Below are positions 7,914 through 34,936 of a DNA stretch of 60,645 bases, one piece after another (the stretch's first letter is position 1; every line of letters begins with the position of its first letter). Location: assembly GCA_964512335.1 (NCBI GenBank), contig CAZEIA010000001.1, forward strand, positions 1-60,645, written 5' to 3'. The position numbers and the translations under genes were made by a program. The notes beneath the pieces were generated by a model. It had not been told where the DNA came from and did no database searches. It saw only the letters and a list, made by a program, of their open reading frames with translations. This stretch comes from an uncultured Desulfobacterales bacterium. Lineage in GTDB: Bacteria; Desulfobacterota; DSM-4660; Desulfatiglandales; HGW-15.

Positions 7914-7923
7914 CCTCCAGTTT

Positions 7924-10516: not shown

Positions 10517-10520
10517 CTTC

Positions 10521-12986: not shown

Positions 12987-13005
12987 TATTATCCTCCTTT
13001 GAGCC

Positions 13006-16462: not shown

Positions 16463-17299
16463 TTATTTCAGCCCCAGCCTGTGGAGCCAGTCAAAGACAA
16501 CCTTTTCCAGGGACCTTTCCGCGCCTATGTAGTAGTGGTCTCCACCTGGAATGATGGCGAATTCGCGAGGATCAGCCCTGACGGCATGTTCATACACGAG
16601 CCGGCTGTATTCCATGAACATCGAATCGCGTTCACAGATGGTGATCAAGATAGGGATGTCCAGCTCGTCTATGTACCCACACATATCCATGCTGGTGCTT
16701 GGGCCCCAAACGGAAAGGAATGTCCTGGCCGTGCAGATAATAGGTGAGGGTCCGTGGTGCCGGAAGATGACAAACCGTTCTCCCTGTCCGGTATTGACCA
16801 GATCGGTGGCATCACTTACGGCCTTGTCATATTGCACGTCCAGATAGTATTTCCACGCGTCCCTCATCAGTACCGGAGGGGTGCAAAGGATCAATGAGAT
16901 GACATCGGGATCCGGTTTCAGGAAATGGGAGTAGACAACTTTGGACGTACCATAGCTGTGCGCGATAACAACCAGCCGCCGGTATCCCCTTTGCTTCAAC
17001 AAACGCAGCCCGGCGGCGATATCCTTGGGGCTGTCCTCAAACTGCTCTTTCAGCAGGCCGATGCAAGGTTCTCCGTCAGCCACTGTACCGTAATCATGGC
17101 CACGGTTGTTGAGCGAAAGGCACGCAATGCCGTTCGCTGCGAGTGCACCGGGTAAAAATCTTCCCAGGCCTGTATAAAAGTTACCCCATGCTCCGTGAGT
17201 GACAAGAGAGGCTGTCGGTGAGGGGGCTTCAGGCTCGTAAAGTGCTCCGTCAAGCCTTACTCCATCTTCTGTGCGGGTGCTGACCAAGTCAATCTGCAT
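16463..17299 (-). CDS. alpha/beta-fold hydrolase
   Basis: Nucleophile elbow VVIAHSYGTS. Overall alpha/beta hydrolase pattern over 278 aa. Confidence 0.65.
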   Translation of the reverse strand: MQIDLVSTRTEDGVRLDGALYEPEAPSPTASLVTHGAWGNFYTGLGRFLPGALAANGIACLSLNNRGHDYGTVADGEPCIGLLKEQFEDSPKDIAAGLRLLKQRGYRRLVVIAHSYGTSKVVYSHFLKPDPDVISLILCTPPVLMRDAWKYYLDVQYDKAVSDATDLVNTGQGERFVIFRHHGPSPIICTARTFLSVWGPSTSMDMCGYIDELDIPILITICERDSMFMEYSRLVYEHAVRADPREFAIIPGGDHYYIGAERSLEKVVFDWLHRLGLK

Positions 17300-17347: not shown

Positions 17348-17920
17348 CTACAGCTCTATACCACGCCTGGCCGGTAACCCACTGTAATAGGGGTGCTTTT
17401 TCTGGATAAACTCGGTGGCATAATCTACGGCCCGGACTATTTCATCGGGAGCATCGCTTCCGGTCATCACAAGCTCGACATTTCCACGGCAGAGTTCCAT
17501 CAGCTCTGTTACCGATTCGACAGTCAGTACGCCGAAGATCAAGGTGTTCAGGATTTCGTCGCACACCAGGACATCTGCACCGTTTTCAACTGCCTCGTGC
17601 GCGTGCTCCAGGGCTTTGCGGGAATGCTCCAGATGAACGGCTTCAGGTCCGCTCGGCTTGATAAAGGGATGACGTCCCGGGCAGTAATATTTGATGCGGG
17701 GAATCCAGCGCAACACATCAACCTCTCCGGAATCGCCGGACTTCATGAACTGGATGAAGGTGACCCGAAGTCCGGCGCCGGTCGCCCTGACCGCCAGGCC
17801 GATCGCCCGGGTTGTCTTACCGGATCCTCGACCATAACAAGCATGGATCATCCCTTTGACAGAATAAATGTCGCCGTTTTCCTGCTTTTGAGGGTAGTAA
17901 CTCATTTCGCGGATCTCCAA
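17348..17920 (-). CDS. cobO: ATP:cob(I)alamin adenosyltransferase, CobO/BtuR type
   Basis: P-loop YGRGSGKTTRAIGLAVRA, plus FIQFMK and LVCDEILN motifs. Its ~190-aa length is typical of CobA/CobO. Confidence 0.8.
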   Translation of the reverse strand: MEIREMSYYPQKQENGDIYSVKGMIHACYGRGSGKTTRAIGLAVRATGAGLRVTFIQFMKSGDSGEVDVLRWIPRIKYYCPGRHPFIKPSGPEAVHLEHSRKALEHAHEAVENGADVLVCDEILNTLIFGVLTVESVTELMELCRGNVELVMTGSDAPDEIVRAVDYATEFIQKKHPYYSGLPARRGIEL

Positions 17921-18169: not shown

Positions 18170-19108
18170 TCATTTCTTCTTCTGGCACAAGTACCTTCTT
18201 TCCTCTCCGAAAAAATCGTACCATCCTCCCTTTGAGCCCGGCTTAAGTTGGGGATTTCCTATGTACCCCGCCTCAAATACCTTTCGGGCCAGAGCCGGGA
18301 CCCTGTACCTTTCCCCGAGTGTTTCGTGAAGGTAGACCTGCGCATGGTAATAGGCATCAAACGAGGCCGTCTCATCAAGGAGCTGAAATACTCCCATCGG
18401 CCATCCGCTCCCTGCCTTGTTCATCTCATCAATATCGGATATGGATGCAACTCCCAACTCCACGAGACGAATCGCTTCCGTAATGTAGGTATTGATAAAA
18501 CGTGTCATGAAAAACCCGGGAGAGTCTTTCACGGGGATGGGTTTTTTGCCGATTTTGGTCAGAAAAACCATGATCAACTGATAAGCGTCCTCACTGGTGA
18601 GTTCGCTGCGTCCAACCTCCACCAGGCGCATTATGTTTGATGGAAAGAACCAGTGTGTACCTACGAGGTTCCTGTGAAGCTTCGTCATGGCCCCTGCCAT
18701 TTCGCTGATCATGATGGAGGATGTGCCTGAGGCAATGATGCAGTGGTCAGGGGCGTATCTCTCCACCTCTTGAAAGCACTGCTTCTTCAGCTTCACGTCT
18801 TCGCCAATGGACTCAAAGACGATATCCGCCTCCTTCAGTGCTTCAGCATACCCTGTAGAGGTTTTGACCTTGGCAAACATCTCCTCGGCCTGCTCAAGGG
18901 TCACTTTACCACGCTCGATCGCCTTGGAAAGCCCATAGGGGCCGTCTTTGATAAGGTGTAAGCCGTGCCGGCAGGTTTCTTCTCTTCTGGAAAGAATCAT
19001 GACCTCATAGGGCCCCCCTTGAATACAGGCCAGGACAATGCCGTGGCCCATGGATCCGCCTCCCCCAATAACCGTTATCCTCCTAACGCTTTCCAGATTC
19101 AGACTCAT
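18170..19108 (-). CDS. 3-hydroxyacyl-CoA dehydrogenase family protein
   Basis: N-terminal NAD fold ITVIGGGGSMGHGIVLA. The C-terminal domain is 3HCDH-like. Confidence 0.8.
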   Translation of the reverse strand: MSLNLESVRRITVIGGGGSMGHGIVLACIQGGPYEVMILSRREETCRHGLHLIKDGPYGLSKAIERGKVTLEQAEEMFAKVKTSTGYAEALKEADIVFESIGEDVKLKKQCFQEVERYAPDHCIIASGTSSIMISEMAGAMTKLHRNLVGTHWFFPSNIMRLVEVGRSELTSEDAYQLIMVFLTKIGKKPIPVKDSPGFFMTRFINTYITEAIRLVELGVASISDIDEMNKAGSGWPMGVFQLLDETASFDAYYHAQVYLHETLGERYRVPALARKVFEAGYIGNPQLKPGSKGGWYDFFGEERRYLCQKKK

Positions 19109-19278: not shown

Positions 19279-20067
19279 TCAACGTCCCGTGAAGGCCGGT
19301 TTCCTCTTCTCCAGGAAGGCGGATGCAGCTTCTTTGTGGTCCTCTGTCTTGTAACAAAAGGCATTTATATTGGCCTCGAACGCAACGCTGTCCTGCAGGG
19401 TGCTGACGGCACCTTGGCGAAGCGCCGCTTTGCTTAATCCCACTGCCAGTGGAGGAAGTCCGCATATTCGGCGGGCAAGGTCAAAGGCGGTATCCAGCAC
19501 GGTATCATCATTTACTACACTGTTTACCAGACCGATCCTTTCCGCTTCAAGGGCATTAAACCTGCGGGCTGTAAGGACCAGTTCCATAGCCCTTCCCAGG
19601 CCCGCCAGTAACGGCAGCATATGGGAGCAACCGATCTCTGGAATGATGCCCATCATGGGAAACTCTGCTCCGAAGGTGGTGCTTTCAGCAGCTATTCTCA
19701 TGTCGCAAAGCAAGGACAGGCCAAAGCCGGCTCCCAGTGCGTACCCGTGAAGGGCACCTATAATGGGCTTCCGGACGCGGGTCAGAAATGTGAGCTTGTC
19801 AAAGAGATCGTTCAAATGGTTTCGTGTTTCAAGATGGCTCTGCTTGCTTATTGCCTTAAGAAATGAGACATCCCCACCCGCGCAAAATGCGCGTCCCTTG
19901 CCACTCAGTACAACAGCCCTCACTTCCTGATTCTTGTCAATCTCGGCAAAACAGGCATAGAGTTCATCAACCATCTCCTGGTTAATGGTATTCATGGCTT
20001 CTTGACGGTTAAGCTGTACATGGATTATGTCAGGCTCTGAATGAATCAAAAGCGTATTATATTGCAT
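19279..20067 (-). CDS. enoyl-CoA hydratase/isomerase (crotonase) family protein
   Basis: Crotonase motifs (VLSGKGRAFCAGGDV, GALHGYALGAGFGL). ATG at 20067 is preceded by AGGAGGA; the longer track ORF start is unlikely. Confidence 0.85.
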   Translation of the reverse strand: MQYNTLLIHSEPDIIHVQLNRQEAMNTINQEMVDELYACFAEIDKNQEVRAVVLSGKGRAFCAGGDVSFLKAISKQSHLETRNHLNDLFDKLTFLTRVRKPIIGALHGYALGAGFGLSLLCDMRIAAESTTFGAEFPMMGIIPEIGCSHMLPLLAGLGRAMELVLTARRFNALEAERIGLVNSVVNDDTVLDTAFDLARRICGLPPLAVGLSKAALRQGAVSTLQDSVAFEANINAFCYKTEDHKEAASAFLEKRKPAFTGR

Positions 20068-20564
20068 AGTGTCCTCCTGAAATAATAAAATTGCCTTAAG
20101 ATGCGGATAATGCTGAAGAGGGCCGTGGCCCGAAACCGCCCTCCCGCCGCTTCCCCGCACTGGAAAATCCAGGCCCTTCGCGCCGGCATTCCCGTACCTA
20201 TCCACAAATCATAAACGTCATGACCGCGTGGCGCAGGAACCTGCTTCATGTAACAACCTCATGGGCTATACCGCAAACAGGGAATTGGGTCGTAATGGAG
20301 CCGTTTCAGGCCAATGACAGCCGAACGATTGTTCGGTCGTAACGATATCAATTAAGTGGGAGGCTGTCAAATTTTTTGTGTTCATGAGACAAAATGCGGA
20401 ATCCGCCATCCGAACGAGAGCCTGAATCGACCCGGACTATCTTGGGCTCAACATAGGAATACTGCATAAATATATGATATAATACATATAATAGTCGGAA
20501 TGAGAACTGTGCCGGAGAAAGGGCCATTGAGCGTCCAAGAATAAAGGCTCTTTCCAAAATTTTC

Positions 20565-20610
20565 TTGACATGGGTTCTCCTGCCTTAGTAATGTTTCCGA
20601 ACATATGTTC
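20565..20610 (+). promoter_or_regulatory. candidate sigma70 promoter overlapped by a perfect 12-bp palindrome (putative TetR operator)
   Basis: TTGACA at 20565-20570, TAGTAAT at 20586-20592, then GAACATATGTTC at 20599-20610. A related half-palindrome TGAACATTGTATTCA lies about 25 nt downstream. An extended -10 TGATATAAT also occurs at 20475-20483. Confidence 0.4.
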
Positions 20611-20779
20611 TCAAAATAAAAAATATGAACATTGTATTCAGATATCCCCACAAAATTTTACACCCCGATCCACACGACCCCCTGCGAATTGGACAGGCGA
20701 TGCGGCTCTGTTGTTACGGCCTTATTCTGTTCAATTCACTGACTCGAGCTTAAAGATCTTTTTAAGGGTGATACCCATT

Positions 20780-21376
20780 ATGGATAAGCAAGAATTAGTC
20801 AAAGCAAAACAGGCCCAGATACTACGAGCGGCTCAAGATCTGTTTGCAAAAAAAGGTTATCACAAGACATCCGTTCGGGATATTGCTAAAAGCTCAGGAA
20901 TGAGTGTTGGATCGTTGTATGATTATATCAAGAACAAGGAAGATATATTATATTTATTAGGCAAGGAATTTCTTGATAATCTTCAGAATGAAGTTGACAA
21001 AGTCCTTGCAGGAGGCTATGGCATACGGGAGGAATTAGAGGGTACCGTTAAGGTTATGCTGAAACTTATTGATCGCTATCAAGAATATACGTTGTTTGCT
21101 TACAGAGATTCCAAGTATCTAAAAAAGGAGCATTTGAAAGCACTGATGAGTCAGGATGACTATTTCACAGAAACCTTTACTTCTATTATAAAAAAAGGTA
21201 TAGACAAAGGGATATTTGAGACGCAAGAGGCAGAAATAGTATCAATAATGCTTACTATGATGACTCATACTTGGGCTTTAAAGCGTTATATTCTGAGGAA
21301 ATATCCGTTTTTTATTTTTGAAAAGACCCTTTTGAGGTTTCTTTTGTGCGGACTGCAGAAAGACTGCAACGAGTGA
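20780..21376 (+). CDS. TetR/AcrR-family transcriptional regulator
   Basis: HTH ILRAAQDLFAKKGYHKTSVRDIAKSSGMSVGSLYDYIKNKEDIL. ATG at 20780 is in frame with the track ORF. Confidence 0.85.
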   Translation: MDKQELVKAKQAQILRAAQDLFAKKGYHKTSVRDIAKSSGMSVGSLYDYIKNKEDILYLLGKEFLDNLQNEVDKVLAGGYGIREELEGTVKVMLKLIDRYQEYTLFAYRDSKYLKKEHLKALMSQDDYFTETFTSIIKKGIDKGIFETQEAEIVSIMLTMMTHTWALKRYILRKYPFFIFEKTLLRFLLCGLQKDCNE

Positions 21377-21388
21377 AAGCAGGCAATT

Positions 21389-22408
21389 ATGGCTTTGGAT
21401 AACATTTTGAAAGGATTACGTGAAGGCAAGACCGGTGCGGCATCAAGGCTCATTACCCTGTTGGAAATGGGCAATGATCACCAAATTGACAGGATCATGG
21501 AAGAGGTCTACCCGAAGACTGGCCATAGCTGGGTTGTTGGAGTGACTGGCCCGGCCGGGGCGGGAAAGAGCAGCCTGCTGAACAACCTGATTTATCAGGT
21601 GCGAAAACAAGGTAAGACAGTGGGTGTGATACTGGTTGATCCCACCAGCCCCTTATCAGGCGGGGCGGTGCTGGGGGATCGCATACGCATGAGTTCCTTT
21701 TCCAGGGATGAAGGCGTATTTATCCGGTCCATGGGATCCCGGGGGAACTTGGGTGGACTTTCCATTGCCACATTGGGGGCTGTACGAATTCTGGACTATT
21801 TGAGGAAAGACTTTATTTTCGTTGAAACTGTTGGCACAGGGCAAGTAGATATCAATATCTGTGATATTGCAGATACAGTTTGTCTTGTACTGATGCCGGG
21901 CGCAGGTGATGTAATCCAATCACTTAAGGCTGGCGTAAGAGAAGTTAATGATATTTTCGTTGTTAACAAATGTGATAGACCTGGCGCTGAAGAGACATCT
22001 CTTAATATTGAAGTTATCATAGATATTCTTGAAAAAAAATTGGATCGCGATTTTATATGGGATGTTCCAATATGCTTAACAAATTCACTTACAGGTGATG
22101 GTATTGAAGCCCTCTGGGAGAAAATTAATGAACATTGCCATAAGTCTGAAGGCAGCGAGTTTAGAAAAGAAAGGAAAAAGGTGCAGGCCAAAAAAGAAAT
22201 CGTTGAGATCATACTCAGAAAATTAGAGAAATTCTTTCGAAGGCAGGTGGAAGAGAAGATGGATTTGGATGATATCCTTGGAGATGTTGTACTCAAGTCA
22301 AAGAGCCCCCAGAGGGCCAGTGAAGAGATCTTCTCCAGGATTGCACACTTGGATTTGACACTTTCACAACTGGCGGATGGAAGAGAGGGAGAGTCTGTAG
22401 GAGACTGA
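21389..22408 (+). CDS. meaB: MeaB/ArgK-type G-protein chaperone of AdoCbl mutases
   Basis: P-loop GPAGAGKSSL, ETVGTGQ and NKCD motifs. It lies immediately upstream of the mutase large subunit. Confidence 0.85.
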   Translation: MALDNILKGLREGKTGAASRLITLLEMGNDHQIDRIMEEVYPKTGHSWVVGVTGPAGAGKSSLLNNLIYQVRKQGKTVGVILVDPTSPLSGGAVLGDRIRMSSFSRDEGVFIRSMGSRGNLGGLSIATLGAVRILDYLRKDFIFVETVGTGQVDINICDIADTVCLVLMPGAGDVIQSLKAGVREVNDIFVVNKCDRPGAEETSLNIEVIIDILEKKLDRDFIWDVPICLTNSLTGDGIEALWEKINEHCHKSEGSEFRKERKKVQAKKEIVEIILRKLEKFFRRQVEEKMDLDDILGDVVLKSKSPQRASEEIFSRIAHLDLTLSQLADGREGESVGD

Positions 22409-22440
22409 ACCTGTTCTTTGATCCTGATGGAGGTTTTTTT

Positions 22441-24159
22441 ATGTTTGATCCCGAGACGATCAAAGTTGACAAGTCACTCAAAGAAAAGTGGACTGAAGAT
22501 TTTAACCAGGTCAAACACAGGTTTGTCAAGGATGGTGCGTATGATTCTGAGACTTACTCCGGCATTCCCCTCAAGGCCTTGTACACGCCTGAGGACATTG
22601 CCGACATTCCATACAGTGAAATAGGTGTTCCAGGACAATTCCCTTTCACGCGAGGGAATTATCCAATGGGGTATCAGTTTATGCCCTGGGCCAATCAGCC
22701 GGTTATCGGGTGCGGGACCCCGGAAGAAACCCGCGCCCGAATGGATTATCTGCGTGAACAGGGAATGACGGGCTATTTTGGAAGAGCATTTTATAACTTA
22801 GTATACGATCTTGCTACCCATGGTGGATTCGATCCTTCCGACAGGGCTGCCGAGGGCAGGGTCGGTGAATGCGGCATGAGTGTCTTTTCCGTGCCTACGA
22901 TGGATATCCTTTTTAAAGACATCGCTCTGGATCAGACCAATGTTGTTCATATCACCATGAATCAGACCCTGCCCATCCTTGCCATCTATATTGCATACGC
23001 GGAATCCCGAGGGTACAGCAGGGACCAGTTACGAGGCAACTCAATGAACTGGTATCACACATATAATGTTGCATCAGGCCTCGCAACATTCCCTCCTGAG
23101 ATATGCGACAGGCTGGCAAGTGAACTCATCTGGTTCTGTACCAAGAATATGCCCATGTGGAACACCACCAACTTGTTCGGGTATGGCATCGAAGAAGCCG
23201 GTGCCAATGCCTATGAGGAGGTGGCTGTAATTGTATCCGCCGGTATGTCCATTTCGAGGCGCTGCATCGAGATGGGGCTTGATCCCGATGAATTTCTTCC
23301 ACGGTTCGGGTTCCAGATTGGTCAAGGAAATGATTTTTTTGAAGAGATCGCCAAGATACGTGCCCTTAGAAAGATCTGGGCAAAGACAAACCGTGATATT
23401 TTTGGTGCCAAAAAAACGCAAAGCATGCATGTCCGGATACATACCCATACTTCCGGCGCCATGCTGACCGCTCAGCAGCCCCTCGTCAATCTGATCCGGA
23501 CCACCATCCAGGGACTCGGGGCCGCCTTGTCCGGGGTCCAGGCAATGGAGATTCCAGGCTATGACGAGGCCCTGGCAATCCCTTCAGAGGATGCAGCCCG
23601 TCTGGCACTGCGGATCCAGCAGGTGGTGGCTGAAGAGACAAACATCACCAAAGTCACGGATCCTTTAGGCGGGTCCTATTATGTTGAATGGTTGACCCGG
23701 GAGCTTGAGGACAAAGCCCGGGTGCTAATTGAAAAGATCGAAGCCCAGGGAGGATTTATTGAGGCCTGGGAAAACGGCTACATCAGATCTCTCATTGAGG
23801 CGTCTGCTCGAAAATGGAAAGAGGCGACTGACTCCGGGAGGCGAACTGTAATAGGCGTAAATAAATACAAAATGGAAGAAGAACAAAAGATACCTTTATA
23901 TAAAATTAAGCCTGAGACTGCAGAAATTCAAATAGAAAGAGATCTTGCTGATAAGAAAAGTCGTGATAGTGAAAAATATGATAAAGCAATGCTGAAATTA
24001 AGAGAGAATCTTGTCAAATTTAAGAAAGGTGATAATGACCACGGACTGGTTCCAGCTATGATTGATGCAGCTCGAAGTGGTGCCACCAGTGGTGAAATGA
24101 TGGCAATGATGAAGGAAACCCTTGGTTGGTTGAACTCTGCTGTTGTGGCACCCTGCTGA
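22441..24159 (+). CDS. acyl-CoA mutase-like large (substrate-barrel) subunit, highly divergent substrate pocket
   Basis: Canonical mutase motifs are retained in the C-terminal half (RIHTHTSGAMLTAQQP, DEALAIPSE, DPLGGSYYVEWLT). The N-terminal half deviates (PWANQPVIGCG, GRAFYNLVYDLAT, GNSMNWYHTYNVASGLATFPP, FGYGIEEAGA). Confidence 0.8.
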   Translation: MFDPETIKVDKSLKEKWTEDFNQVKHRFVKDGAYDSETYSGIPLKALYTPEDIADIPYSEIGVPGQFPFTRGNYPMGYQFMPWANQPVIGCGTPEETRARMDYLREQGMTGYFGRAFYNLVYDLATHGGFDPSDRAAEGRVGECGMSVFSVPTMDILFKDIALDQTNVVHITMNQTLPILAIYIAYAESRGYSRDQLRGNSMNWYHTYNVASGLATFPPEICDRLASELIWFCTKNMPMWNTTNLFGYGIEEAGANAYEEVAVIVSAGMSISRRCIEMGLDPDEFLPRFGFQIGQGNDFFEEIAKIRALRKIWAKTNRDIFGAKKTQSMHVRIHTHTSGAMLTAQQPLVNLIRTTIQGLGAALSGVQAMEIPGYDEALAIPSEDAARLALRIQQVVAEETNITKVTDPLGGSYYVEWLTRELEDKARVLIEKIEAQGGFIEAWENGYIRSLIEASARKWKEATDSGRRTVIGVNKYKMEEEQKIPLYKIKPETAEIQIERDLADKKSRDSEKYDKAMLKLRENLVKFKKGDNDHGLVPAMIDAARSGATSGEMMAMMKETLGWLNSAVVAPC

Positions 24160-24201
24160 TTCCTGGAATCTAAATGAACTTTTCCTTGGAGGGCTACGAT
24201 A

Positions 24202-24591
24202 ATGGAACGCAAAACGGTTCGGATTCTCATGACCAAGGCTGAGCAGGATTGTCACGACAGGGGTGTCCGATACATTACCACTAAGTTGAGAGAGGCAGGA
24301 TTCGAGGTTATATACACCAATTTTCTGTATCCGGAAGAAATTGTCAATACAGCCGTTCAGGAAGATGTTGATGTGATTGGCCTTTCCAGTTCCACGCTGG
24401 GGCATATCCAGGTGCTGAGTCATGTCAAGGCAGGTTTAAAAGAAGAGGGTCTTGACGACATCCTCATCATGGTTGGCGGTGTTGTTCCGGACGACGACCT
24501 GTCGAAGCTGTCGGATTTGGGGATCCACGCCTTGTTTGGGCCGGGGACCACGGCCAACGAGGTAATTGATTTTATAAAATCAAATACTTGA
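24202..24591 (+). CDS. mutase small subunit, B12-binding domain (base-off/His-on)
   Basis: DxHxxG (DCHDRG), SxL (SSSTLGH) and GG (MVGGVVP) motifs in a 129-aa protein. Confidence 0.85.
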   Translation: MERKTVRILMTKAEQDCHDRGVRYITTKLREAGFEVIYTNFLYPEEIVNTAVQEDVDVIGLSSSTLGHIQVLSHVKAGLKEEGLDDILIMVGGVVPDDDLSKLSDLGIHALFGPGTTANEVIDFIKSNT

Positions 24592-24715
24592 GGCTTTGAA
24601 AAGAACCTGCCCACCCACCGCCGGGCAGGCCGTAACCGGTCAGGATTACAGGGGAGGATGACCTGCTTTGCGGCTCTTTCCTGCCCTCTCAAACGTTATT
24701 CTGGAAGGTCAATGT

Positions 24716-25207
24716 ATGAAAGAGGAAAGCATACTGAATTATAAGACAGTTCTTGTAGTTGATGACGAACCGGATGTACTGGACACCGTCGAAGAAATAC
24801 TTTCCATGTGCATAGTTTCTAAAGCGAAGGATTACGAAACAGCGGTTCAATACCTCTTAGGCTACACTTACGATATTGTTATTCTTGATATTATGGGAGT
24901 GAGCGGCTTTGAACTCCTGAAGAAGTCCGTGGCCAGGGGGTTCCCCACAATAATGCTTACGGCCCATGCTGTTACAGCAGAATCACTCAAGAACTCCATA
25001 AGGCTGGGAGCCGTTTTTTTCCTTCCGAAGGACGAGATGTCCGAGCTTCAAGGCTTTCTGGAGGAGGTGGTGCTTGGAGGCGGGAAGCCGATATGGGCAA
25101 AGCTGTTCAATCGACTTGATTCGTATTTCCAGAGACGATTCGGGCCTGACTGGAAAGAAAAAGAGCGGATCCTCAGGGAAGTGGAAGAAACCCTTTCAAG
25201 GGACTGA
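24716..25207 (+). CDS. receiver-only response regulator with conserved C-terminal extension (paralog of 2088..2597)
   Basis: ATG at 24716 follows a GGAAGG. It carries VVDDE, ILDIMGVSGFELL, MLTAHA and LPKDEM, with tail W..L..YF..FGPDWKEKE shared with the other copy. Confidence 0.8.
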   Translation: MKEESILNYKTVLVVDDEPDVLDTVEEILSMCIVSKAKDYETAVQYLLGYTYDIVILDIMGVSGFELLKKSVARGFPTIMLTAHAVTAESLKNSIRLGAVFFLPKDEMSELQGFLEEVVLGGGKPIWAKLFNRLDSYFQRRFGPDWKEKERILREVEETLSRD

Positions 25208-25221: not shown

Positions 25222-25683
25222 ATGAATACATCGGGTACGTACGACTCTGAAAAACTACATGATGCAAATTACGTAATTGGAGTTCTCTGTTCCGAATTCT
25301 TGAGGGAATACGGAGAAGCTTCAAAGGATATCATTTCTCGAATCTGTTATGAGCGCGGCCTGGCGCTGGGGAAGAGACTCGGGGCAAAAATCAAGGACAA
25401 ATCGTTTGAGACTGCGGTGGCTGCGTTTGTTCGGGCCTCGGAAAAAAGCGAGTCTCCGGCAGTGTTGGTCTCTTTATCCGAAGAAAGGGCCGTATTGCAA
25501 GGGAGTGGCTGTCCCCTGGGATTGAAGGGCAGGGGCCGTCCCGTTTGTGAGGCAATGATGCCTATGGATCAAGGCATCCTGGAAAGTGCATCGAATGTGA
25601 AAGTCAATTTTAAAGTTGTTAAAAGCATCGCCGGTGGTGATGAGAATTGTGAAGTTGTCTTTGAGGTTCAGCCATCTGATTAG
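25222..25683 (+). CDS. small Cys-rich V4R/ATC-hydrolase-like putative ligand-binding protein
   Basis: The pattern GCPLG..PVCEAMMPMDQGILE..GGDENCEVVFEV resembles V4R-type small-molecule-binding modules. The assignment is by eye only. Confidence 0.45.
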   Translation: MNTSGTYDSEKLHDANYVIGVLCSEFLREYGEASKDIISRICYERGLALGKRLGAKIKDKSFETAVAAFVRASEKSESPAVLVSLSEERAVLQGSGCPLGLKGRGRPVCEAMMPMDQGILESASNVKVNFKVVKSIAGGDENCEVVFEVQPSD

Positions 25684-25892
25684 GCATTAATATGACCACG
25701 AATCCGGCTCGAAAATGATTCTTTGGGTTGCAGCCCCTGGTTTTGAGATCTGCGTTAATATTGTCGATATGTTAGGGACTTCCCGAAGGCGGCTGAACCT
25801 TTTTTGCCAGGCCGTCGGTTTTACCTGTGAAGCGCTGTTTGTAAATTTTGGAAGCTATCGGCCGAATGTATGCGGGGAGGGGAGAGGCTATT

Positions 25893-27035
25893 ATGAGTGT
25901 CAAACTCAATAAGGAGCAAAAGGATATCATTCAGGCGGCGAAGGAATTTGCACTAAAGGCGTTTTCCGAAGTAATGCAGGACTTTGACAGGAATGAGGCC
26001 TTTGACCTCGATCTCTTGAGGAAAGCTGCCGAGCTAGGGTTCGTGGGCGTCAGCTTCGATGAGGCTTACGACGGGATAGGGTACAGCTATTTTGAGCACT
26101 GTCTTATCACGGAGGAGTTCTCCGCCGTCGATGCAGGCATAGGAGCGGCTGTTCTTTACCCCGCCGTTGTCGGGGAATGCATCCATCTGTTTGGGGACGA
26201 GTCCCAGAAGCAATCCATGCTTCCGCGGATTACAAGCGGTGAGATTGTTCCGGCGCTTGCCGTTTGTGAGCCGGAAACCGGTACTGATATGTTTTCCGTG
26301 GCAACAAGCGCGATGCGACAAAACAACTCCTGGATCATTAATGGAGACAAAATATTCGTTATTGGAGGGGATTACGCTGACTATACATGTGTACTCGCGC
26401 TGACCGACCCCGAAAACCCGTCACCTGAGAACCGGCACAGTTTCATTCTTGTGCCGAGGGAAACTCAGGGAATGAGCTGCGAACGGCTTGAGGGGAAGCT
26501 GGGCATGAGGGCGGCAACTGCAGCCAGGCTGTCCTTTTCCAATGTCCAAGTCCCTGTTTCCAATTGCATAGGATCTCCGGGCGACGGATTTCGTCAGGCA
26601 AGGGCACTGCAGGGCAGGATTGATGCAATGGGTGCCGCCATGGGTGTTGGAGTTGCCAGGGCCGCCCTTCACGAGGGTGTAACTTACTCGAAGGCGCGGC
26701 ACGCTTTCGGAGTCCCCATTTCTTCATTCCAGGGGATTCAGGCCAAGCTGATCGAAATGGCAACTCTCATGAGGGCCGCCAGGAACCTCTATTATGAAGC
26801 TGCATCGTCCTTGGCGGCCGGGAATGCGGATTACGGCCTTGCGGCTATGGCCAAGAGGTTCAGCGGAAAAACCGCTTTGCTGTGTGCGGACGAAGCCGTT
26901 CAGATCCACGGAGGTTATGGATATTTTGATGAATACCGAGTGCAACGTCTTTACCGGGACGCCAAAGTCGTTGATCTCTGGGAGGGGTCGAAGGAACTGG
27001 AGAGACAGAACATACTGAAGACCATACTGGGCTAG
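25893..27035 (+). CDS. acyl-CoA dehydrogenase
   Basis: ACAD fold motifs with C-terminal YRDAKVVDLWEGS (catalytic Glu context). ATG at 25893 follows a GGGGAGGGGAGAGG. Confidence 0.85.
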   Translation: MSVKLNKEQKDIIQAAKEFALKAFSEVMQDFDRNEAFDLDLLRKAAELGFVGVSFDEAYDGIGYSYFEHCLITEEFSAVDAGIGAAVLYPAVVGECIHLFGDESQKQSMLPRITSGEIVPALAVCEPETGTDMFSVATSAMRQNNSWIINGDKIFVIGGDYADYTCVLALTDPENPSPENRHSFILVPRETQGMSCERLEGKLGMRAATAARLSFSNVQVPVSNCIGSPGDGFRQARALQGRIDAMGAAMGVGVARAALHEGVTYSKARHAFGVPISSFQGIQAKLIEMATLMRAARNLYYEAASSLAAGNADYGLAAMAKRFSGKTALLCADEAVQIHGGYGYFDEYRVQRLYRDAKVVDLWEGSKELERQNILKTILG

Positions 27036-27094: not shown

Positions 27095-28243
27095 ATGGAT
27101 TTCGATCTGACTGAAGAACAAAGACTGATTCAAGAGGTTGCCTATGACTTTGCAATGAGAGAATTCCCTCCTCTGTCAAGGTCCCATGACCGGGAGGAGA
27201 AGTATCCCGAAGGGATATGGAAGAAGGCTTGTGAGGCGGGCATAGGCGGCGTGACGATCCCGAAAGAATATGGCGGCCGGGGTCTGGGGTTCGTGGAGCT
27301 GGTCCTTGTCACCGAGCAGCTCAGCAGGGTTGATTTGGGCCTCTCCTTAGCGGTTCAGGCGGGGACTTTCGGTTCCGAGAACATAATCTTTTTTGGTTCC
27401 GAAGAGCATAAGAGAAACTATCTTCCCCGCCTCGCCGGCGGAGATGCCGTATCTGCGGGTGCCTATACGGAGCCCGATGCCGGTTCTGACGTGGCTTCCA
27501 TCAAGACCAGCGCCGTTCGTGAAGGCGATGAGTACGTTATCAACGGCAGCAAGGTCTTCATTACTCACGGCCTTGCCTGCGACTGGATGGTGGTCTTGTG
27601 TCTTACAGACCCGAATGAAGAAAAGAGGCACATGAGGCAGAGTATGATTCTTGTGGAGTCCACGCTAAAAGGGGTTGAGGTCAACAAACTCACCGGGAAA
27701 ATGGGCATACGTGCCAGTGAAACGACGGAAGTCTCATTGAGTGATGTCCGTGTCCCCTGCGATCACCTGGTGGGCACTGAGGGAAAAGGTTTCTACCAAT
27801 TGATGGATTTCTTCGACGCAACCCGCACCATGGTGGCTTCCCAGGGGCTTGGCCTTGCTCAGGCTGCGTTGGATCGAACTATAGCCTATGTCAAGGAAAA
27901 GAAAACCCGGGGCAGGTCACTGGCCTCTCACCAGGAGATACAGTTTCTACTGGCTGAAATGGCAACAAAGATAGAACTGTCCCGTACGCTTACTTACAAA
28001 GCGGCATGGCAGGTGGATCAGGGGCGGACAGCCCCGGCCCTCAATGCAATGGCAAAGTATTCCGCAGGGGAGATGGCTGTATGGGTGTGCGGTAAGGCTT
28101 TGGAGATCCACGCAGAATTCGGGCCTGAGTCCCTCTACGACACCCATGATGTTCAAAGGTATTATCGTGATGCAAAGATCATAGAGATCTATGAAGGGAC
28201 CAAGGAAGTGGAAAAAATAACTATTGCCAGAAGGCTATTCTAA
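27095..28243 (+). CDS. acyl-CoA dehydrogenase (tandem paralog)
   Basis: GAYTEPDAGSDV, and YRDAKIIEIYEGTKEV with the catalytic Glu. Confidence 0.9.
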   Translation: MDFDLTEEQRLIQEVAYDFAMREFPPLSRSHDREEKYPEGIWKKACEAGIGGVTIPKEYGGRGLGFVELVLVTEQLSRVDLGLSLAVQAGTFGSENIIFFGSEEHKRNYLPRLAGGDAVSAGAYTEPDAGSDVASIKTSAVREGDEYVINGSKVFITHGLACDWMVVLCLTDPNEEKRHMRQSMILVESTLKGVEVNKLTGKMGIRASETTEVSLSDVRVPCDHLVGTEGKGFYQLMDFFDATRTMVASQGLGLAQAALDRTIAYVKEKKTRGRSLASHQEIQFLLAEMATKIELSRTLTYKAAWQVDQGRTAPALNAMAKYSAGEMAVWVCGKALEIHAEFGPESLYDTHDVQRYYRDAKIIEIYEGTKEVEKITIARRLF

Positions 28244-28254: not shown

Positions 28255-29028
28255 TTGTCAAAGGAAACCATTTTGGAATTGGAGCAGATCTCTCTAAAGT
28301 TCGGAAACATCCAGGCCTTATCTGATGTCAGTATCAGCTTCATGCGTGGTAAAATTACCGCGCTTATTGGTCCCAACGGGGCTGGGAAAACCAGTATTCT
28401 GAATTGTATCAATGGGTTTTATAGACCCGACAGCGGCCGGATCTTATTTGAGGGCCAGACCATTACAGGGCGCAAGCCCTATCGAATTGCAGAATGCGGA
28501 GTTGCACGAACCTTCCAGAACATTGAACTCTACACCGGTCTCAGCACACTGGACAACCTTATGGCTGCACGTCATATGCTTATGCGCAGGGGTGCTATTG
28601 CAGGGGGAGTTTTTTTCGGGCCGGGTAGAAGGGAGGAACTGCGTCACCGGCGTGAGGTGGAAGAGATCATCGATCTCATGGAACTTCAGGAGATTAGGAA
28701 GAAAACTGTGGGCTCTCTTCCATACGGACAAAGGAAGAGGGTGGACCTGGCCCGTGCCCTGTGCATGGAGCCGAAGATCCTGCTGATGGATGAACCGATG
28801 GCGGGGATGAATGTTGAAGAGAAAGAAGACATGGCCAGGTTCATTCTGGATATCCATGAACTGAACGGTACCACTATCGTTATGGTAGAGCACGACATGG
28901 ATGTTGTTATGGATATTGCCGGCATGGTGGTTGTTCTGGATTTCGGGATCAAGATTTCCGAAGGAACCCCCGACGAAGTCAAGGCGGATCCGCATGTTAT
29001 TCAGGCTTATCTTGGTGAGGAGCAATGA
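28255..29028 (+). CDS. livG: ABC transporter ATP-binding protein, LivG type
   Basis: Walker A GPNGAGKTS, signature-region LPYGQRKRV, Walker B LLMDEP. TTG start follows AAGGAGGG. Confidence 0.85.
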   Translation: MSKETILELEQISLKFGNIQALSDVSISFMRGKITALIGPNGAGKTSILNCINGFYRPDSGRILFEGQTITGRKPYRIAECGVARTFQNIELYTGLSTLDNLMAARHMLMRRGAIAGGVFFGPGRREELRHRREVEEIIDLMELQEIRKKTVGSLPYGQRKRVDLARALCMEPKILLMDEPMAGMNVEEKEDMARFILDIHELNGTTIVMVEHDMDVVMDIAGMVVVLDFGIKISEGTPDEVKADPHVIQAYLGEEQ

Positions 29029-29031
29029 TTG

Positions 29032-30945
29032 ATGGCCGATAAGAATTTAGACACATTACCCAAGCTTCTACGTCGAAATTTCCGCAATAACCCTGACAAG
29101 ATCGCATTGAGGCACAAGGACAGGGGGATATGGAAGAGCTACACTTGGAAGGATTACTACGATAATGTCAAGTTCTTCTGCCTTGGTTTGAAGCATCTGG
29201 GTTTAGAAGCTCATGATAAGGTTGCCATCTTGGGGGAAAACAAGCCTGAGTGGTATTATGCCGAACTGGCCGTCCAGTCTGCGGGAGGGGCTGCTGTAGG
29301 GATTTTCACGGACTGTGGTCCTTCGGAGGTGAAGTACTACATTGAGCACTCGGACGCCGTTTTTGTAATGGCGCATGATCAGGAACAGGTGGATAAAGTC
29401 CTCCAGATCAAGGCAGAGCTTCCCCGGCTGAAAAAGGTTATCTATTGGGACCCGAAAGGGTTGTGGGATTATAAAAACCCACTTCTTCTCAGTGCAGAGG
29501 AACTCCTGGATTTGGGAAGGAAGCATGAAACCGTTAATCCGAGCTTTTTTGACAGCAGTATTGACCAAGGATCAAAAGATGATATTGGTGTGATATGTTA
29601 TACATCAGGTACAACAGGAACACCGAAAGGGGCTATGCTGGATCAGAAGTTTCTGGTGGAAGGCGCAAGGACGTGGGGCGAACTGGATGGATGGGCGGGT
29701 AATGACTATCAGTATCTCTCTTTTATTCCCGGTGCATGGTCGGTGGAGCAGGTGATTGGTATTGCCGGCTCGCTGTTTGCCGGGATTACGGTTAATTTTC
29801 CCGAAAAACCGGAGACGGTTCAGGAAAACCTGCGTGAGATCGGCCCACACATTGTCTTTTACGGAGCCAGGCTTTGGGAGTTGCTGAGCCGAACTATTCA
29901 GGCGAGAATGATGGATACGTCTTACCTGCGAAGATTGATTTACCGAATATGCCTTGCTGTCAGAAAAAAGATGATAAGTGATTACGGCTCCACTGAAAGA
30001 AGGAGGCTGGGGCCTGTAAGTATGTTTCTATCACTTTTGACCTACCATGCGGTGATTCGGCAATTGCGGGACAGGCTGGGTCTGAGCAATGCGCGTATTG
30101 TTTACTCCGCAGGCGCCGCTGTCAGTCCTGATATTATCCTTTTCTTTCTTGCTCTGGGGATCGAGATCAAGCTGTTCTATGGGGCCACGGAGCTTGGAGC
30201 TGTTTCCATCCCCACCTCAGGGGTGATCCGGCCGGAGACTTCAGGTCCCATTGTCCCATGGGCTGAAGTCAAGCTCTCCGAGCAAGGCGAGATCCTTGTA
30301 AAAAGCCGCTATATGTTTGCCGGTTACTATAAGGATCCGGAAGCCACCGCAGGGAAGTTTCTGGATGGATGGTTCCAGACAGGCGATTTCGGGTACATTG
30401 ATAAGGATGGGCACCTGATTGTGATCGACCGTATGGACGACTTGAAGCAGTTGAGAGGGGGGAAGAAGTTTTCCCCGCAGTATAACGAGATACGGCTCCG
30501 GTTCAGCCCTTTTATCAAGGAGGCTGTGGTTCTTGGGGGGGAAGACAGGGACTATGTCACAGTCCTGATCAACATCGACATCGAGAACGTCGGGAGATTT
30601 GCCGAAGACCACCATATCCCCTATACAACCTTTTCCGATCTTTCTCAGAAGCCGGAAGTTATTGATCTCGTGCACAGCGAAGTCGTCAAAGTGAACAGGA
30701 CACTCCCTGATCATGCGCGTATCAAAAGGTTTGTGAACATATACAAGGAACTTGACGCGGATGAGTCCGAACTGACCCGCACCAGGAAACTGCGGAGATC
30801 ATTTGTGGAAGACCGGTACAGCGATCTTATAGAGATGGTTTACGGGGACCGCGACAAGTGGGATGTGAAGGCGTCCGTTACTTACCAAGACGGAAGGACC
30901 GGTATGCTGGAGACGCAGGTGATAGTTAAAACCGTTACTGAATAG
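29032..30945 (+). CDS. long-chain-type acyl-CoA ligase embedded in the ABC transporter operon
   Basis: Canonical ANL P-loop YTSGTTGTPKGA, plus TGDFGYIDKDGHL and C-terminal ELTRTRKLRR. The gene sits between livG and livH. Confidence 0.85.
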   Translation: MADKNLDTLPKLLRRNFRNNPDKIALRHKDRGIWKSYTWKDYYDNVKFFCLGLKHLGLEAHDKVAILGENKPEWYYAELAVQSAGGAAVGIFTDCGPSEVKYYIEHSDAVFVMAHDQEQVDKVLQIKAELPRLKKVIYWDPKGLWDYKNPLLLSAEELLDLGRKHETVNPSFFDSSIDQGSKDDIGVICYTSGTTGTPKGAMLDQKFLVEGARTWGELDGWAGNDYQYLSFIPGAWSVEQVIGIAGSLFAGITVNFPEKPETVQENLREIGPHIVFYGARLWELLSRTIQARMMDTSYLRRLIYRICLAVRKKMISDYGSTERRRLGPVSMFLSLLTYHAVIRQLRDRLGLSNARIVYSAGAAVSPDIILFFLALGIEIKLFYGATELGAVSIPTSGVIRPETSGPIVPWAEVKLSEQGEILVKSRYMFAGYYKDPEATAGKFLDGWFQTGDFGYIDKDGHLIVIDRMDDLKQLRGGKKFSPQYNEIRLRFSPFIKEAVVLGGEDRDYVTVLINIDIENVGRFAEDHHIPYTTFSDLSQKPEVIDLVHSEVVKVNRTLPDHARIKRFVNIYKELDADESELTRTRKLRRSFVEDRYSDLIEMVYGDRDKWDVKASVTYQDGRTGMLETQVIVKTVTE

Positions 30946-30954
30946 ACAGGAGGT

Positions 30955-31842
30955 GTGATGACCAATTTTATCCAGTTTCTTGTCAGTGGTCTGCTTGTGG
31001 GAGGTATTTACGGCCTTGTGGCGGTAATCGTGGTTGTGGTTTATAAGTCCACAAAAGTTGTCAGCATCGCCCATGGCCAGATCCTTGCCCTAGGAGCTCT
31101 TTTTTTCTGGATCTTTCTGGGTGGTCTGGATCTACACCCCCTGATCGCTTTCCTCCTGGCCGTTATCGCCAGCGGTGTTCTTGGGTTCCTGATAGAGAGG
31201 TTCACTATGCGCCCGCTGATCGGACAACCTCTGTTCAGTTCCTTCCTAATGACCTTTGCCGTGTTCATGTTCCTTAACGGTTTGTTCCAGCTTTATCTCC
31301 AGGGACAGAGTCGGGCCTTCCCGTATTTCCTTCCCAAAGACAGGCTGTCCTTTCAGGGAATATTCGTGGCGCAGGATCAAATCATCAGCTTTGCCTGTTC
31401 TGTCCTTTTCTTTATCGTTCTAATGCTTTTTTTTAAATATACCAAAATCGGGCTGGGCATGAGGGCTACAGCGGAAGATCATGCCCTTGCCCAAAGCTCA
31501 GGTATTCGTGTCCGAACTATCTTTACCGTCGTGTGGGTCCTTTCCGCATTGGGGGCATGTTTGGCGGGAATCGCAGCGGCCAATATCATGGATATCCACT
31601 ACCCTCTTCCATATATTGGAATAAAGGGGCTCATTGTTGCCATGCTGGGAGGGCTGGAATCAATCGGCGGAGCGTTCCTGGCCGGTTTGATCCTGGGAGT
31701 AGTGGAAAATATCAGTGCCGGCTACCTGGATCCTGTGGTGGGTGGCGGCGTTATGGATGTGGCTGCCTATGTTCTCCTTCTATTAATTCTGCTGGTAAAG
31801 CCTTACGGGCTTTTCGGATTGCATGAGATAGAAAGAATATAA
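30955..31842 (+). CDS. livH: branched-chain-type ABC permease, LivH family
   Basis: 295-aa polytopic membrane protein with a LivH-like sequence. Confidence 0.85.
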   Translation: MMTNFIQFLVSGLLVGGIYGLVAVIVVVVYKSTKVVSIAHGQILALGALFFWIFLGGLDLHPLIAFLLAVIASGVLGFLIERFTMRPLIGQPLFSSFLMTFAVFMFLNGLFQLYLQGQSRAFPYFLPKDRLSFQGIFVAQDQIISFACSVLFFIVLMLFFKYTKIGLGMRATAEDHALAQSSGIRVRTIFTVVWVLSALGACLAGIAAANIMDIHYPLPYIGIKGLIVAMLGGLESIGGAFLAGLILGVVENISAGYLDPVVGGGVMDVAAYVLLLLILLVKPYGLFGLHEIERI

Positions 31843-31874
31843 CGCAAAAAAATGCATTGAAAGGATAGGTTAAT

Positions 31875-32921: not shown

Positions 32922-33139
32922 ACGGGAACAATTGCCGGGACAGACCATAACCAACTGAATACATTGTGTAAGACTAGTTTAAAGGATTTTGCGGCCCCAT
33001 CGATAATAATCGTACAGTTTTCATCGTTTCGATTCGGCAGAGTCACGCAAACTTTAACACAGGAGGGTAATCAGCGGAACGAAGCCTTGTTTGCAGCAGT
33101 TATGTAAAATGTTAATTAATAGAAGAAAGAGGAGGACTT

Positions 33140-34366: not shown

Positions 34367-34390
34367 CATTTTATACAAAAGGAGGAGAAT

Positions 34391-34855: not shown

Positions 34856-34936
34856 TATTAACTGAAGAAAAGTGAGCAGCTGGGAAAAGGCCGGGCCCTG
34901 TGAATAGAGGGCCTCCGCGTGCGAGGGCTAAGGGAT

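Follow-up and report, generated by a model that had tools for sequence, protein, structure and literature searches.

A split adenosylcobalamin-dependent acyl-CoA mutase-type enzyme with a rebuilt substrate pocket in an uncultured Desulfobacterales bacterium

Which substrate would be rearranged by an adenosylcobalamin (AdoCbl)-dependent acyl-coenzyme A (acyl-CoA) mutase in which the substrate ligands of methylmalonyl-CoA mutase (MCM) have been replaced? This question is raised by a three-gene operon, encoding a MeaB-type chaperone and the large and small subunits of a split mutase, on a 60,645-nucleotide stretch of contig CAZEIA010000001.1 from an uncultured Desulfobacterales bacterium (assembly GCA_964512335.1); this whole stretch is referred to as the window. 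A sequence-only reading of the window had reported these genes together with a remodelled substrate pocket and had suggested a new substrate, a step taken by inference. The analysis presented here indicates that the operon probably encodes a working AdoCbl acyl-CoA mutase with its MeaB chaperone, that this enzyme belongs to an uncharacterised clade of an already-known family, and that it would act on a non-carboxylated, probably hydroxylated or branched substrate and pass its product into the closing steps of beta-oxidation. This substrate has probably not been described so far, and the pathway would be a breakdown pathway mostly of uncultured bacteria.

New specificities in the mutase family, such as those of isobutyryl-CoA mutase (ICM), ethylmalonyl-CoA mutase (ECM), 2-hydroxyisobutyryl-CoA mutase (HCM) with RCM, and pivalyl-CoA mutase (PCM), have each led to a pathway or to a route of use in biotechnology, and His244 (numbering of the Propionibacterium shermanii MCM) is regarded as catalytic in the family. 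Documented uses include 2-hydroxyisobutyrate production (PMC2847961) and synthetic lactyl-CoA mutase cycles (PMC11599936). The clade described here could reveal an unrecognised B12-dependent degradation of acids that block beta-oxidation, and it could show how radical acyl migration is achieved with a differently built active site.

The mutase operon and its rebuilt substrate pocket

As judged from profile matches, the three genes are members of the MeaB, AdoCbl acyl-CoA mutase large-subunit and B12-domain families, and their open reading frames (ORFs) were recovered at the positions proposed earlier (Table 1). MeaB scores 277.5 bits against the NCBIfam equivalog TIGR00750 (cut-off 240.75), carries the P-loop GPAGAGKS and has 6cum, 2qm7 and 8dpb as relatives in the PDB. 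The large subunit covers PF01642 in full (profile positions 1-512 of 512) and reaches 463.4 bits with TIGR00641 (cut-off 303.8). The small subunit reaches 129.4 bits with TIGR00640 (cut-off 57.45), contains the B12 motifs DCHDRG (DxHxxG), SSSTL (SxL) and MVGGV (GG), and has 2yxb_A and the HCM subunit HcmB (4r3u_C) as best PDB matches. All three ORFs are co-directional, with gaps of 32 and 42 bases, and the operon contains one large subunit only. PF01642, PF02310 and TIGR00750 bear out the earlier assignment, in which a split enzyme of the AdoCbl acyl-CoA mutase type is accompanied by a dedicated MeaB, and PF02572 bears out the CobO-type adenosyltransferase on the opposite arm. An AlphaFold2 model of the large subunit, built from a 24-sequence family alignment, had a predicted local distance difference test score (pLDDT) of 70 and a predicted template modelling score (pTM) of 0.77, and its top Foldseek match was the HCM large subunit 4r3u_A, with a template modelling (TM) score of 0.78.

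The substrate pocket was aligned by phmmer against PDB chains, by BLASTP against the PCM large subunit Xaut_5043 and in a 112-sequence MAFFT alignment. These methods reproduced the by-eye alignment of the sequence-only reading, whose quoted strings (WANQPVIGCG, GYFGRAFYNLVYDLAT, GNSMNWYHTYNVASGLATFPP, FGYGIEEAGA, HTHTSGAMLTAQQP and DPLGGSYYVEWLT) are all present in the translation. In phmmer, the best PDB match was HCM 4r3u_A (2.7e-105, 356 bits), with human MMUT 2xij_A at 7e-92 and the P. shermanii MCM 1e1c_A at 6e-88, MCM scoring 312 bits; the E-values of the family matches, 1e-88 to 1e-154, rule out chance as an issue. The three methods agree that Tyr89 and Arg207, the carboxylate ligands of MCM, correspond to Val88 and Ser212, Gln197 to Met202 and His244 to Gly249. 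The rewriting is wider than had been listed: Phe287 is replaced by Gln292, Gln330 by His336 and Ala116 (Asp117 in HCM) by Val121, and the equivalents of Thr85, Arg87, Thr195, a Lys residue and Ser285 are also altered. A six-residue insertion, FGRAFY, occupies positions 113-118. The equivalents of Tyr243, Glu247 and Arg283 and the C-terminal half are conserved, and strand 167-172 has a one-position ambiguity between HMMER and MAFFT. Human MMUT contacts malonyl-CoA through residues 96-99, 106-110, 216-218, 228, 255, 265 and 304-306 (UniProt annotation), and nearly all of the equivalents are altered (YPMG, ANQPV, NSM, S, M, G and RFG).

Ten positions of the large subunit (V88, V121, H170, T172, M202, S212, Y248, G249, Q292 and H336) define a pocket signature, which reads VVHTM[S/V/T]YGQH in the clade, YAMMQRYHFQ in MCM, IDFIQQYHFQ in HCM, FAMIQQYHFQ in ICM-like enzymes and LLMDQNQHFQ in PCM. 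HCM, ICM-like enzymes and MCM differ mutually at 2-4 of these positions, whereas the clade differs at 8-9. PCM, itself heavily rewritten, contradicts the earlier premise that few of the pocket positions are altered in known variants. Under rigorous alignment with MCM, HCM and PCM, the Arg, His and Gln residues of the pocket stay lost. As read from these alignments, the pocket of the clade is different from those of the characterised relatives compared directly.

HCM (HcmAB; Aquincola tertiaricarbonis 4R3U, Methylibium petroleiphilum PM1 and Mycobacterium sp. ELW1) is the best match both by sequence and by fold (TM 0.78-0.80), at an identity of 32-38%. It has split subunits and a MeaB-type chaperone like the window enzyme, the Tyr89 position is taken by a small hydrophobic side chain in both, and HCM clusters encode a 3-hydroxybutyryl-CoA dehydrogenase, a thiolase and an adenosyltransferase, as in loci of the clade. 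However, HCM keeps WTMRQ, GT(V/I)Q, GYH, PRL(A/S)FFF, HxQT and Asp117, whereas the window enzyme has ANQPV, NSM, GYG, RFGFQ, HTHT and Val121 plus the insertion, and V88, V121, S212 and G249 stand where HCM has Ile90, Asp117, the Gln at the Arg207 position and His245. The context of HCM comprises the HCL ligase and a GntR regulator, that of the window enzyme TetR, a Liv-type ABC transporter and a FadD-like ligase; no PaaK-type HCL or GntR regulator was found by Pfam scan among the window genes around the mutase.

RCM, the (R)-3-hydroxybutyryl-CoA-forming mutase RcmAB (Kyrpidia tusciae, Bacillus massiliosenegalensis), was compared by the spacing of six published residue numbers only, those of the RcmA first shell of B. 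massiliosenegalensis (I95, V122, V172, H174, Y252 and F296; PMC11599936 supplement). By spacing, V122, V172, H174 and Y252 correspond to V121, V168, H170 and Y248 of the window enzyme and I95 approximately to V88, and in both proteins the conserved Tyr is preceded, at a distance of 77 residues, by a V-x-His pair. In contrast, F296 corresponds to Gln292, and the spacing of 27 between I95 and V122, which is that of HcmA, compares with 33 between V88 and V121. An RcmA residue pattern, written as a regular expression, matched none of the sequences collected, the family of the window enzyme included, and in a search for RcmA through HCL-ligase homologues, all matches were HCLs of proteobacteria with at least 74% identity. 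Sulfate reducers, too, have RCM-like enzymes, a parallel to the present locus, and an acetone-pathway enzyme of Desulfococcus biacutus has been termed 'RcmAB-like' (PMC7176365). RCM clusters contain HCL and GntR, or a thiamine diphosphate-dependent enzyme and a dehydrogenase of the short-chain dehydrogenase/reductase type (PMC7888143), compared with a 3-hydroxyacyl-CoA dehydrogenase of the 3HCDH family and TetR in the window. The six residues point to a likeness that is partial and possibly convergent, short of membership.

Xaut_5043/5044 of Xanthobacter autotrophicus Py2, located on plasmid pXAUT01, is taken here to be the isovaleryl-CoA/pivalyl-CoA mutase PCM, after Kitanishi et al. 2015. 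Like the window enzyme, it consists of two subunits and its pocket is heavily rewritten (strings WTQRQLIGLG, SLLPCCSGFRG, GTSNQSDYISHFIANHQFY and VGQHMQQAG), but the identity is 33% and PCM forms a separate branch. The architecture of its cluster nearly matches as well: TetR and the genes of both subunits are joined by MeaB, and a long AMP ligase lies inside a Liv-type ABC transporter. Unlike the window enzyme, PCM keeps His244, Thr85/Arg87/Gln88 and Gln330 and has no insertion; its cluster is without 3-hydroxyacyl-CoA dehydrogenase (HADH) and thiolase, and the window neighbourhood is without downstream enzymes of the leucine/isovalerate type. ECM keeps the Tyr/Arg/His triad that is missing in the window enzyme. 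The ICM-like signature was found in 68 comparison sequences, none of them of the present family, and the IcmF model NF045497 gave 168.9 bits against a cut-off of 1500. A Paracoccus plasmid match considered as a possible ECM proved to be a two-subunit MCM.

Conservation of the clade and of its gene neighbourhood

A search of 5.8 billion proteins returned about 37 relatives at 68-96% identity, the named ones belonging to Desulfobacteraceae, Desulfatitalea and 'Deltaproteobacteria' metagenome-assembled genomes (MAGs), and many at 52-56% from Actinomycetia, Acidimicrobiia, Solirubrobacteraceae, Hyphomicrobiales, Burkholderiales, Methylomirabilia and Thermaerobacter. All relatives found share the pocket motifs. 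Conservation was assessed at 45 pocket and contact positions in 117 full-length homologues (52-96% identity) from Desulfobacterota, Actinomycetota, Alpha- and Betaproteobacteria, Methylomirabilia and Thermaerobacter. The mean top-residue frequency was 0.94 for the pocket and 0.72 for the whole protein, and none of 10,000 random position sets was as high. Invariant residues are W83, A84, N85, Q86, Y112, F113, G114, H170, N200, M202, W204, Y205, Y248, E251, E252, R288, G290, F291, Q292, H334 and H336. Among them, Y248 represents the Tyr of the Tyr-His pair, and the equivalent of His244 is Gly249 in 116 of the 117 sequences. Strong purifying selection thus acts on the rebuilt pocket, which has not decayed; being the most conserved part of these homologues, it argues for design rather than decay. 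The clade is widespread and conserved and is not a one-off of this genome.

A neighbour-joining tree was built from the clade together with PCM, two HCMs, one annotated MCM, a mutase from a Streptomyces plasmid and 35 split mutases of generic type. In it, the clade is monophyletic and lies outside the MCM/HCM/ICM-like group. Profile scores, alignments and this tree taken together place the large subunit outside MCM, HCM, PCM, IcmF and the group with the ICM-like signature. Its identity to MCM, HCM, PCM and ICM-like enzymes is 30-42%, compared with 43-54% among those groups. In a profile search of 1.84 billion representatives at 50% identity, the whole clade was covered by a single representative (1010 bits), the next match scoring 601 bits. 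One near neighbour, P0121, has part of the signature in common (GNSMNWY, YG, FQI and HVHT). Another relative is a sister mutase of a Deltaproteobacteria MAG (L002, 427-2539; 40% identity, with an adjoining B12 subunit), the pocket of which (WMIQQLHGYG, GQSQNGLGN, CGYVLGEM, RFSSQV, HVHTAG) shares the insertion, the changes of Phe287 to Gln and Gln330 to His, and the loss of His244, replaced by Val. P0121 and L002 suggest a larger branch in which loss of His244 is paired with a new His at position 330. Among the best 150 representatives (P0121-P0269), many uncharacterised clades have diverse pockets in which His244 is replaced by Asn, Asp, Ala, Gln, Val, Cys or Gly, so that a remodelled pocket is not peculiar to the present clade, which is one among many unexplored clades of the mutase family. 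The functional diversity of the MCM family appears to be greatly under-sampled, and 'methylmalonyl-CoA mutase' labels in public databases hide many clades with pockets unable to bind methylmalonyl-CoA.

Genome contigs were also scanned by profile and with two patterns, one of which, DFFEE[IV][AC]K, is general to the superfamily; L001 was the only true member found, and the remaining 79 loci were used as outgroups. Within L003-L080, 68 of 83 mutases carry the ICM-type Phe/Gln signature and not the Tyr/Arg of MCM. These mutases come from Chloroflexota, Acidobacteriota, Actinomycetota, Bacteroidota and archaea, and such genes are usually labelled methylmalonyl-CoA mutase. Among 72,556 plasmids searched by tblastn, there was no member of the family, all matches being below 39% identity; the search supplied the reference loci for HCM, MCM and PCM.

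The conserved gene neighbourhood, overlooked by the sequence-only reading, is the most informative evidence. The survey covered ten related loci, namely L081 (a 5.25-Mb contig), L082 and L083 (Burkholderiales), L085 and L096 (close relatives), L086 (Hyphomicrobiales), L087 (Actinomycetia), L089 (with the gene order of L087), L090 (Thermaerobacter) and L091 (Methylomirabilia), plus the P0034 locus, and revealed a recurrent catabolic module. The gene most constantly linked to the mutase is that for 3HCDH, which is present in all ten loci, usually adjoining the mutase, and also in the window and in L001. A thiolase is encoded in L096 and in all non-Desulfobacterota loci with genes called (L001 unresolved), a FadR-like TetR_C_24 regulator in nine of the ten loci, MeaB in eight and a crotonase in most. 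An activating enzyme is usual as well, its type varying between a family-III CoA-transferase, an acetyl-CoA hydrolase/transferase and an AMP ligase combined with an ABC transporter. The minimal clusters, L086 and L090, contain an activating enzyme, mutase, HADH and thiolase only, a set that is also contained in verified HCM clusters. The P0034 locus has MeaB, both mutase genes and a crotonase, and no HADH, thiolase or TetR within its 10-kb flanks. SCPx-type thiolases usually act on 2-substituted 3-ketoacyl-CoAs, and L096 encodes a thiolase of the SCPx type together with a DUF35 fusion protein.

Metallo-beta-lactamase-fold or alpha/beta-hydrolase genes recur in these neighbourhoods (L082 1217-2257, L096 16628-17599, the P0034 locus and the window), and genes of the NMO family (nitronate monooxygenase-like) are present in two Desulfobacterota loci. 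L096 also carries a second mutase pair (19782-21719, minus strand; a 560-aa large subunit and a B12 subunit) 8 kb downstream of the family mutase.

Proposed function and rival explanations

By homology, the small subunit binds AdoCbl base-off/His-on through His18 of DCHDRG and the TIM-barrel subunit binds an acyl-CoA, and MeaB and the CobO adenosyltransferase of the divergent arm are of a type that loads and repairs the cofactor. If the chemistry of the family applies, substrate binding would trigger Co-C homolysis, the 5'-deoxyadenosyl radical would abstract a hydrogen, the thioester would undergo a 1,2-shift and the hydrogen would be returned. The acid would be imported by the Liv-type ABC transporter and activated by the ligase (by a CoA-transferase in other phyla), and the isomer formed by the mutase would be finished by the 3-hydroxyacyl-CoA dehydrogenase and the usual thiolase and crotonase, with acyl-CoA dehydrogenases (ACADs) in the Desulfobacterota version. 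The polarising of the thioester carbonyl by His244 is probably taken over by the invariant H336, at the Gln330 position, and/or H170. The smaller residues at positions 89, 207 and 244 would leave room for a bulkier acyl group, going by side-chain size alone.

A hydroxylated substrate and a 3-hydroxyacyl-CoA product are favoured, tentatively and with some way to go to even confidence. The preferred candidates are tertiary 2-hydroxy-2-methylacyl-CoAs larger than 2-hydroxyisobutyryl-CoA, or a 4-hydroxyacyl-CoA converted into a 3-hydroxy-2-methylacyl-CoA; under the second option, speculatively, the hydrolase and metallo-beta-lactamase-fold genes that recur near the mutases would be lactonases. A full-text search for 4-hydroxybutyryl-, hydroxyvaleryl-, levulinyl- and methylbutyryl-CoA mutases returned nothing relevant. 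Whether the clade may also form a new functional class, in which the catalytic His has moved to H336 and/or H170, almost all acyl and CoA contacts are rebuilt and the rearrangement is undescribed for any enzyme, is finely balanced, with doubt slightly prevailing. If true, this would provide, for example, a B12 solution to the gamma-hydroxy-acid/lactone problem, by conversion of a 4-hydroxyacyl-CoA into a 3-hydroxy-2-methylacyl-CoA, or a linearisation of bulky 2-hydroxy-2-methylacyl-CoAs. It would further mean that a widespread TetR-controlled catabolic module of mutase, HADH and thiolase exists in uncultured Actinomycetota, Proteobacteria and Desulfobacterota, and that the clade forms a larger 'His244-less' branch with the sister clades L002 and P0121.

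Several points weigh against a working mutase with a hydroxylated substrate. The loss of His244 is without precedent among the characterised mutases compared, so that activity itself has to be inferred, and all homologues with a named source come from MAGs. The pLDDT of the AlphaFold2 model falls below 50 precisely in the pocket segments 62-88, 110-113, 209-215 and 335-411; given this low confidence, the model was used for the fold-level match only and provides no structural argument on the replacement of His244. Pfam scans found no thiolase in the window, and the crotonase would have no role in a pure HCM-like route. The ACADs of the Desulfobacterota loci fit equally well an ICM-like route, in which a branched acyl-CoA is converted into a straight one that undergoes full beta-oxidation. 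Such a conversion, which accommodates both the ACADs and the crotonase, is a serious alternative.

The rival that survives best supposes a known job carried out by another pocket, the clade being either a third lineage of 2-hydroxyisobutyryl-CoA/3-hydroxybutyryl-CoA mutases or an isobutyryl-CoA/butyryl-CoA mutase, with convergence and no new substrate. The neighbours are classical C4 enzymes (Hbd-like HADH, BktB-like thiolase, crotonase and Bcd-like ACADs), Hbd and thiolase are also found in clusters of HCM, which is the best PDB match by sequence and fold, and V121 and H170 coincide with first-shell residues of RCM. On the other hand, the insertion, the rebuilt contacts and the loss of His244 are far more change than HCM or ICM-like enzymes needed; 8-9 key positions are altered, compared with 2-4. 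In addition, the Val, Ser and Gly residues that replace Tyr89, Arg207 and His244 suggest, by their size, a bulkier acyl group, and the HCL ligase and GntR regulator typical of HCM and RCM clusters are absent. This explanation is considered unlikely, though it carries real weight, and a working mutase acting on a larger, non-carboxylated acyl-CoA continues to be preferred.

It is very improbable that the large subunit is a dead, scaffold-like paralogue, comparable to the MutA beta chain of the Propionibacterium MCM, or part of a decaying relic operon. Although His244 and all MCM substrate-binding residues are missing and there is a partial match to TIGR00642 (MutA; 194.8 bits), the altered positions are the most conserved ones in homologues from several phyla, and MutA-type chains score 114 and 108 bits in phmmer compared with 300-356. 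The ORFs are intact and are accompanied by their own DxHxxG B12 subunit, MeaB and adenosyltransferase, with no second large subunit. E252 is aligned with MCM Glu247, which presumably contacts the adenosyl ribose, and is invariant.

An ordinary MCM (EC 5.4.99.2) disguised by a misleading alignment is hardly credible: the window enzyme has the fold, the AdoCbl motifs and the MeaB/MMAA chaperone logic of MCM (P. shermanii 1REQ, human MMUT 2XIJ), and its homologues are labelled 'methylmalonyl-CoA mutase N-terminal domain' by JGI and NCBI, but Tyr89, Gln197, Arg207, His244, Phe287 and Gln330 are all replaced in concordant alignments, position 212 is only V, S, T or C in the 117 homologues, no Arg or Lys occurs in segment 199-219 of the family sequences displayed in the MAFFT alignment, the MCM equivalog NF006944 gives 393 bits against a cut-off of 876, and the epimerase and carboxyltransferase of the Brevibacillus MCM locus have no counterpart nearby. 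With the carboxylate ligands Tyr89 and Arg207 gone, the substrate would be neither methylmalonyl- nor ethylmalonyl-CoA.

Regulation and other genes of the window

Both arms around the divergent intergenic region are probably repressed by the FadR-like TetR regulator through CGAAC-N4-GTTCG palindromes (Table 1). CGAAC-N4-GTTC occurs at two sites only in the window, both in this region (3 strand matches compared with 0.37 expected), and the palindrome is also present in the equivalent divergent intergenic regions of L086 (9930-9943) and L096 (7929-7942), which supports, without proving, joint control by TetR. A sigma-70-like element, TTGACA-17-TATCGT, is located on the minus strand at 20370-20342; the TTGACA of the plus-arm promoter (20565-20570) was read by eye, and the promoter scan gave no call there. 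The helix-turn-helix of TetR begins at residue 84 of the listed ORF and its orthologues have 193-226 aa; its real start is probably ATG 20780, which corresponds to 198 aa.

Table 1. Genes and other features around the mutase operon and elsewhere in the window
Feature	Position	Strand	Match or remark
Stand-alone response-regulator receiver protein	2049-2597		
B12-binding radical SAM protein	4876-6246	-	PF02310, PF04055
Glycyl-radical enzyme (821 aa), activase, IclR regulator, TRAP transporter DctPQM	6621-13836	-	
Second AMP-forming acyl-CoA ligase	14820-16328	-	
Alpha/beta hydrolase	16463-17299	-	
CobO/BtuR-type ATP:corrinoid adenosyltransferase	17348-17920	-	PF02572 1.5e-42
3-Hydroxyacyl-CoA dehydrogenase (PRK06035-like, 3HCDH)	18170-19108	-	PF02737, PF00725
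Crotonase-family enoyl-CoA hydratase	19279-20205	-	PF00378 6.8e-59; first gene of divergent arm
Palindrome CGAACGATTGTTCG	20322-20335		Putative TetR operator, minus-arm promoter
TetR regulator, acyl-CoA-responsive FadR-like C-terminal domain	20570-21376	+	PF00440 5.8e-15, PF17932 (TetR_C_24) 7.2e-10
Palindrome CGAACATATGTTC	20598-20611		Putative TetR operator, just downstream of plus-arm promoter
MeaB G-protein chaperone (AdoCbl loading/repair of mutase), 339 aa	21389-22408	+	PF03308 1.5e-73, 247.6 bits
Mutase large subunit (substrate, TIM barrel), 572 aa	22441-24159	+	PF01642 514.3 bits
Mutase small subunit, base-off/His-on B12-binding Rossmann domain, 129 aa	24202-24591	+	PF02310 3.7e-21
Stand-alone response-regulator receiver protein	24668-25207	+	PF00072 1.8e-12; without counterpart in other family loci (absent from L085, L096)
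Conserved 153-aa protein, GCPLxLxGRG...C motif	25222-25683	+	No Pfam/NCBIfam match
Two butyryl-CoA-dehydrogenase-type ACADs	25848-27035, 27095-28243	+	Pfam ACAD N, M and C domains
Liv-type ABC uptake system with embedded long AMP-forming acyl-CoA ligase	28255-35731	+	Pfam
Liv module, first part: LivG-like; ligase; permeases	28255-29028; 29029-30945; 30955-32921	+	
Liv module, second part: binding protein; hypothetical; LivF-like	33140-34366; 34391-34855; 34919-35731	+	
Hbd-type 3-hydroxybutyryl-CoA dehydrogenase	36003-36881	+	PF02737, PF00725; end of plus arm
Cobalamin riboswitch	49065-49294		RF00174, 85 bits
TonB-dependent receptor	49400-51412		
CbiK cobaltochelatase	51449-52339		
BtuF-like binding protein	52321-53232		
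FecCD permease	53465-54508		

On the divergent arm, NCBIfam matches to the crotonase begin at residue ~47, and its true start is probably ~45 codons downstream of the listed GTG. NF004699 is the best NCBIfam model both for the 3HCDH of the window (283 bits) and for the mutase-linked HADH of the Burkholderiales locus L082 (252 bits). For the Hbd-type enzyme that closes the plus arm, the best model is a different one; this enzyme gives 383.7 bits with NF004474, slightly below the cut-off of 408. It is plausible that the alpha/beta hydrolase and the second ligase are part of the mutase module.

On the plus arm, neither ACAD reaches an NCBIfam equivalog cut-off; ACADs are also found in L085 and L096. 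The 153-aa protein is 53% and 43% identical to ACAD-adjoining proteins of L085 (13391-13858) and L096 (4347-4784), respectively. Proteins with this motif have 145-155 aa and always adjoin the ACAD in Desulfobacterota-type clusters, one orthologue giving a weak ATC_hydrolase match. The ligase-in-ABC module recurs in L082, L085, L096 and the PCM cluster of Xanthobacter Py2. Both receiver proteins of the window have ~180 aa and no output domain. The segment 20001-26000, which includes the start of the mutase operon, has a G+C content of 0.44-0.48, compared with 0.51-0.62 over most of the window, and the module may have been acquired horizontally.

The glycyl-radical enzyme scores 469 bits as HpsG sulfopropanediol dehydratase and 446 bits as hydroxyproline dehydratase, both far below the cut-offs. 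A link between this locus and the mutase operon was considered and rejected, the locus having its own IclR regulator and TRAP transporter and being absent from all other family loci. The radical SAM protein is a second cobalamin-dependent enzyme in the window. At a distance of 25 kb from the mutase operon, the riboswitch and the genes downstream of it (49065-55272) resemble a locus for the uptake and salvage of corrinoids.

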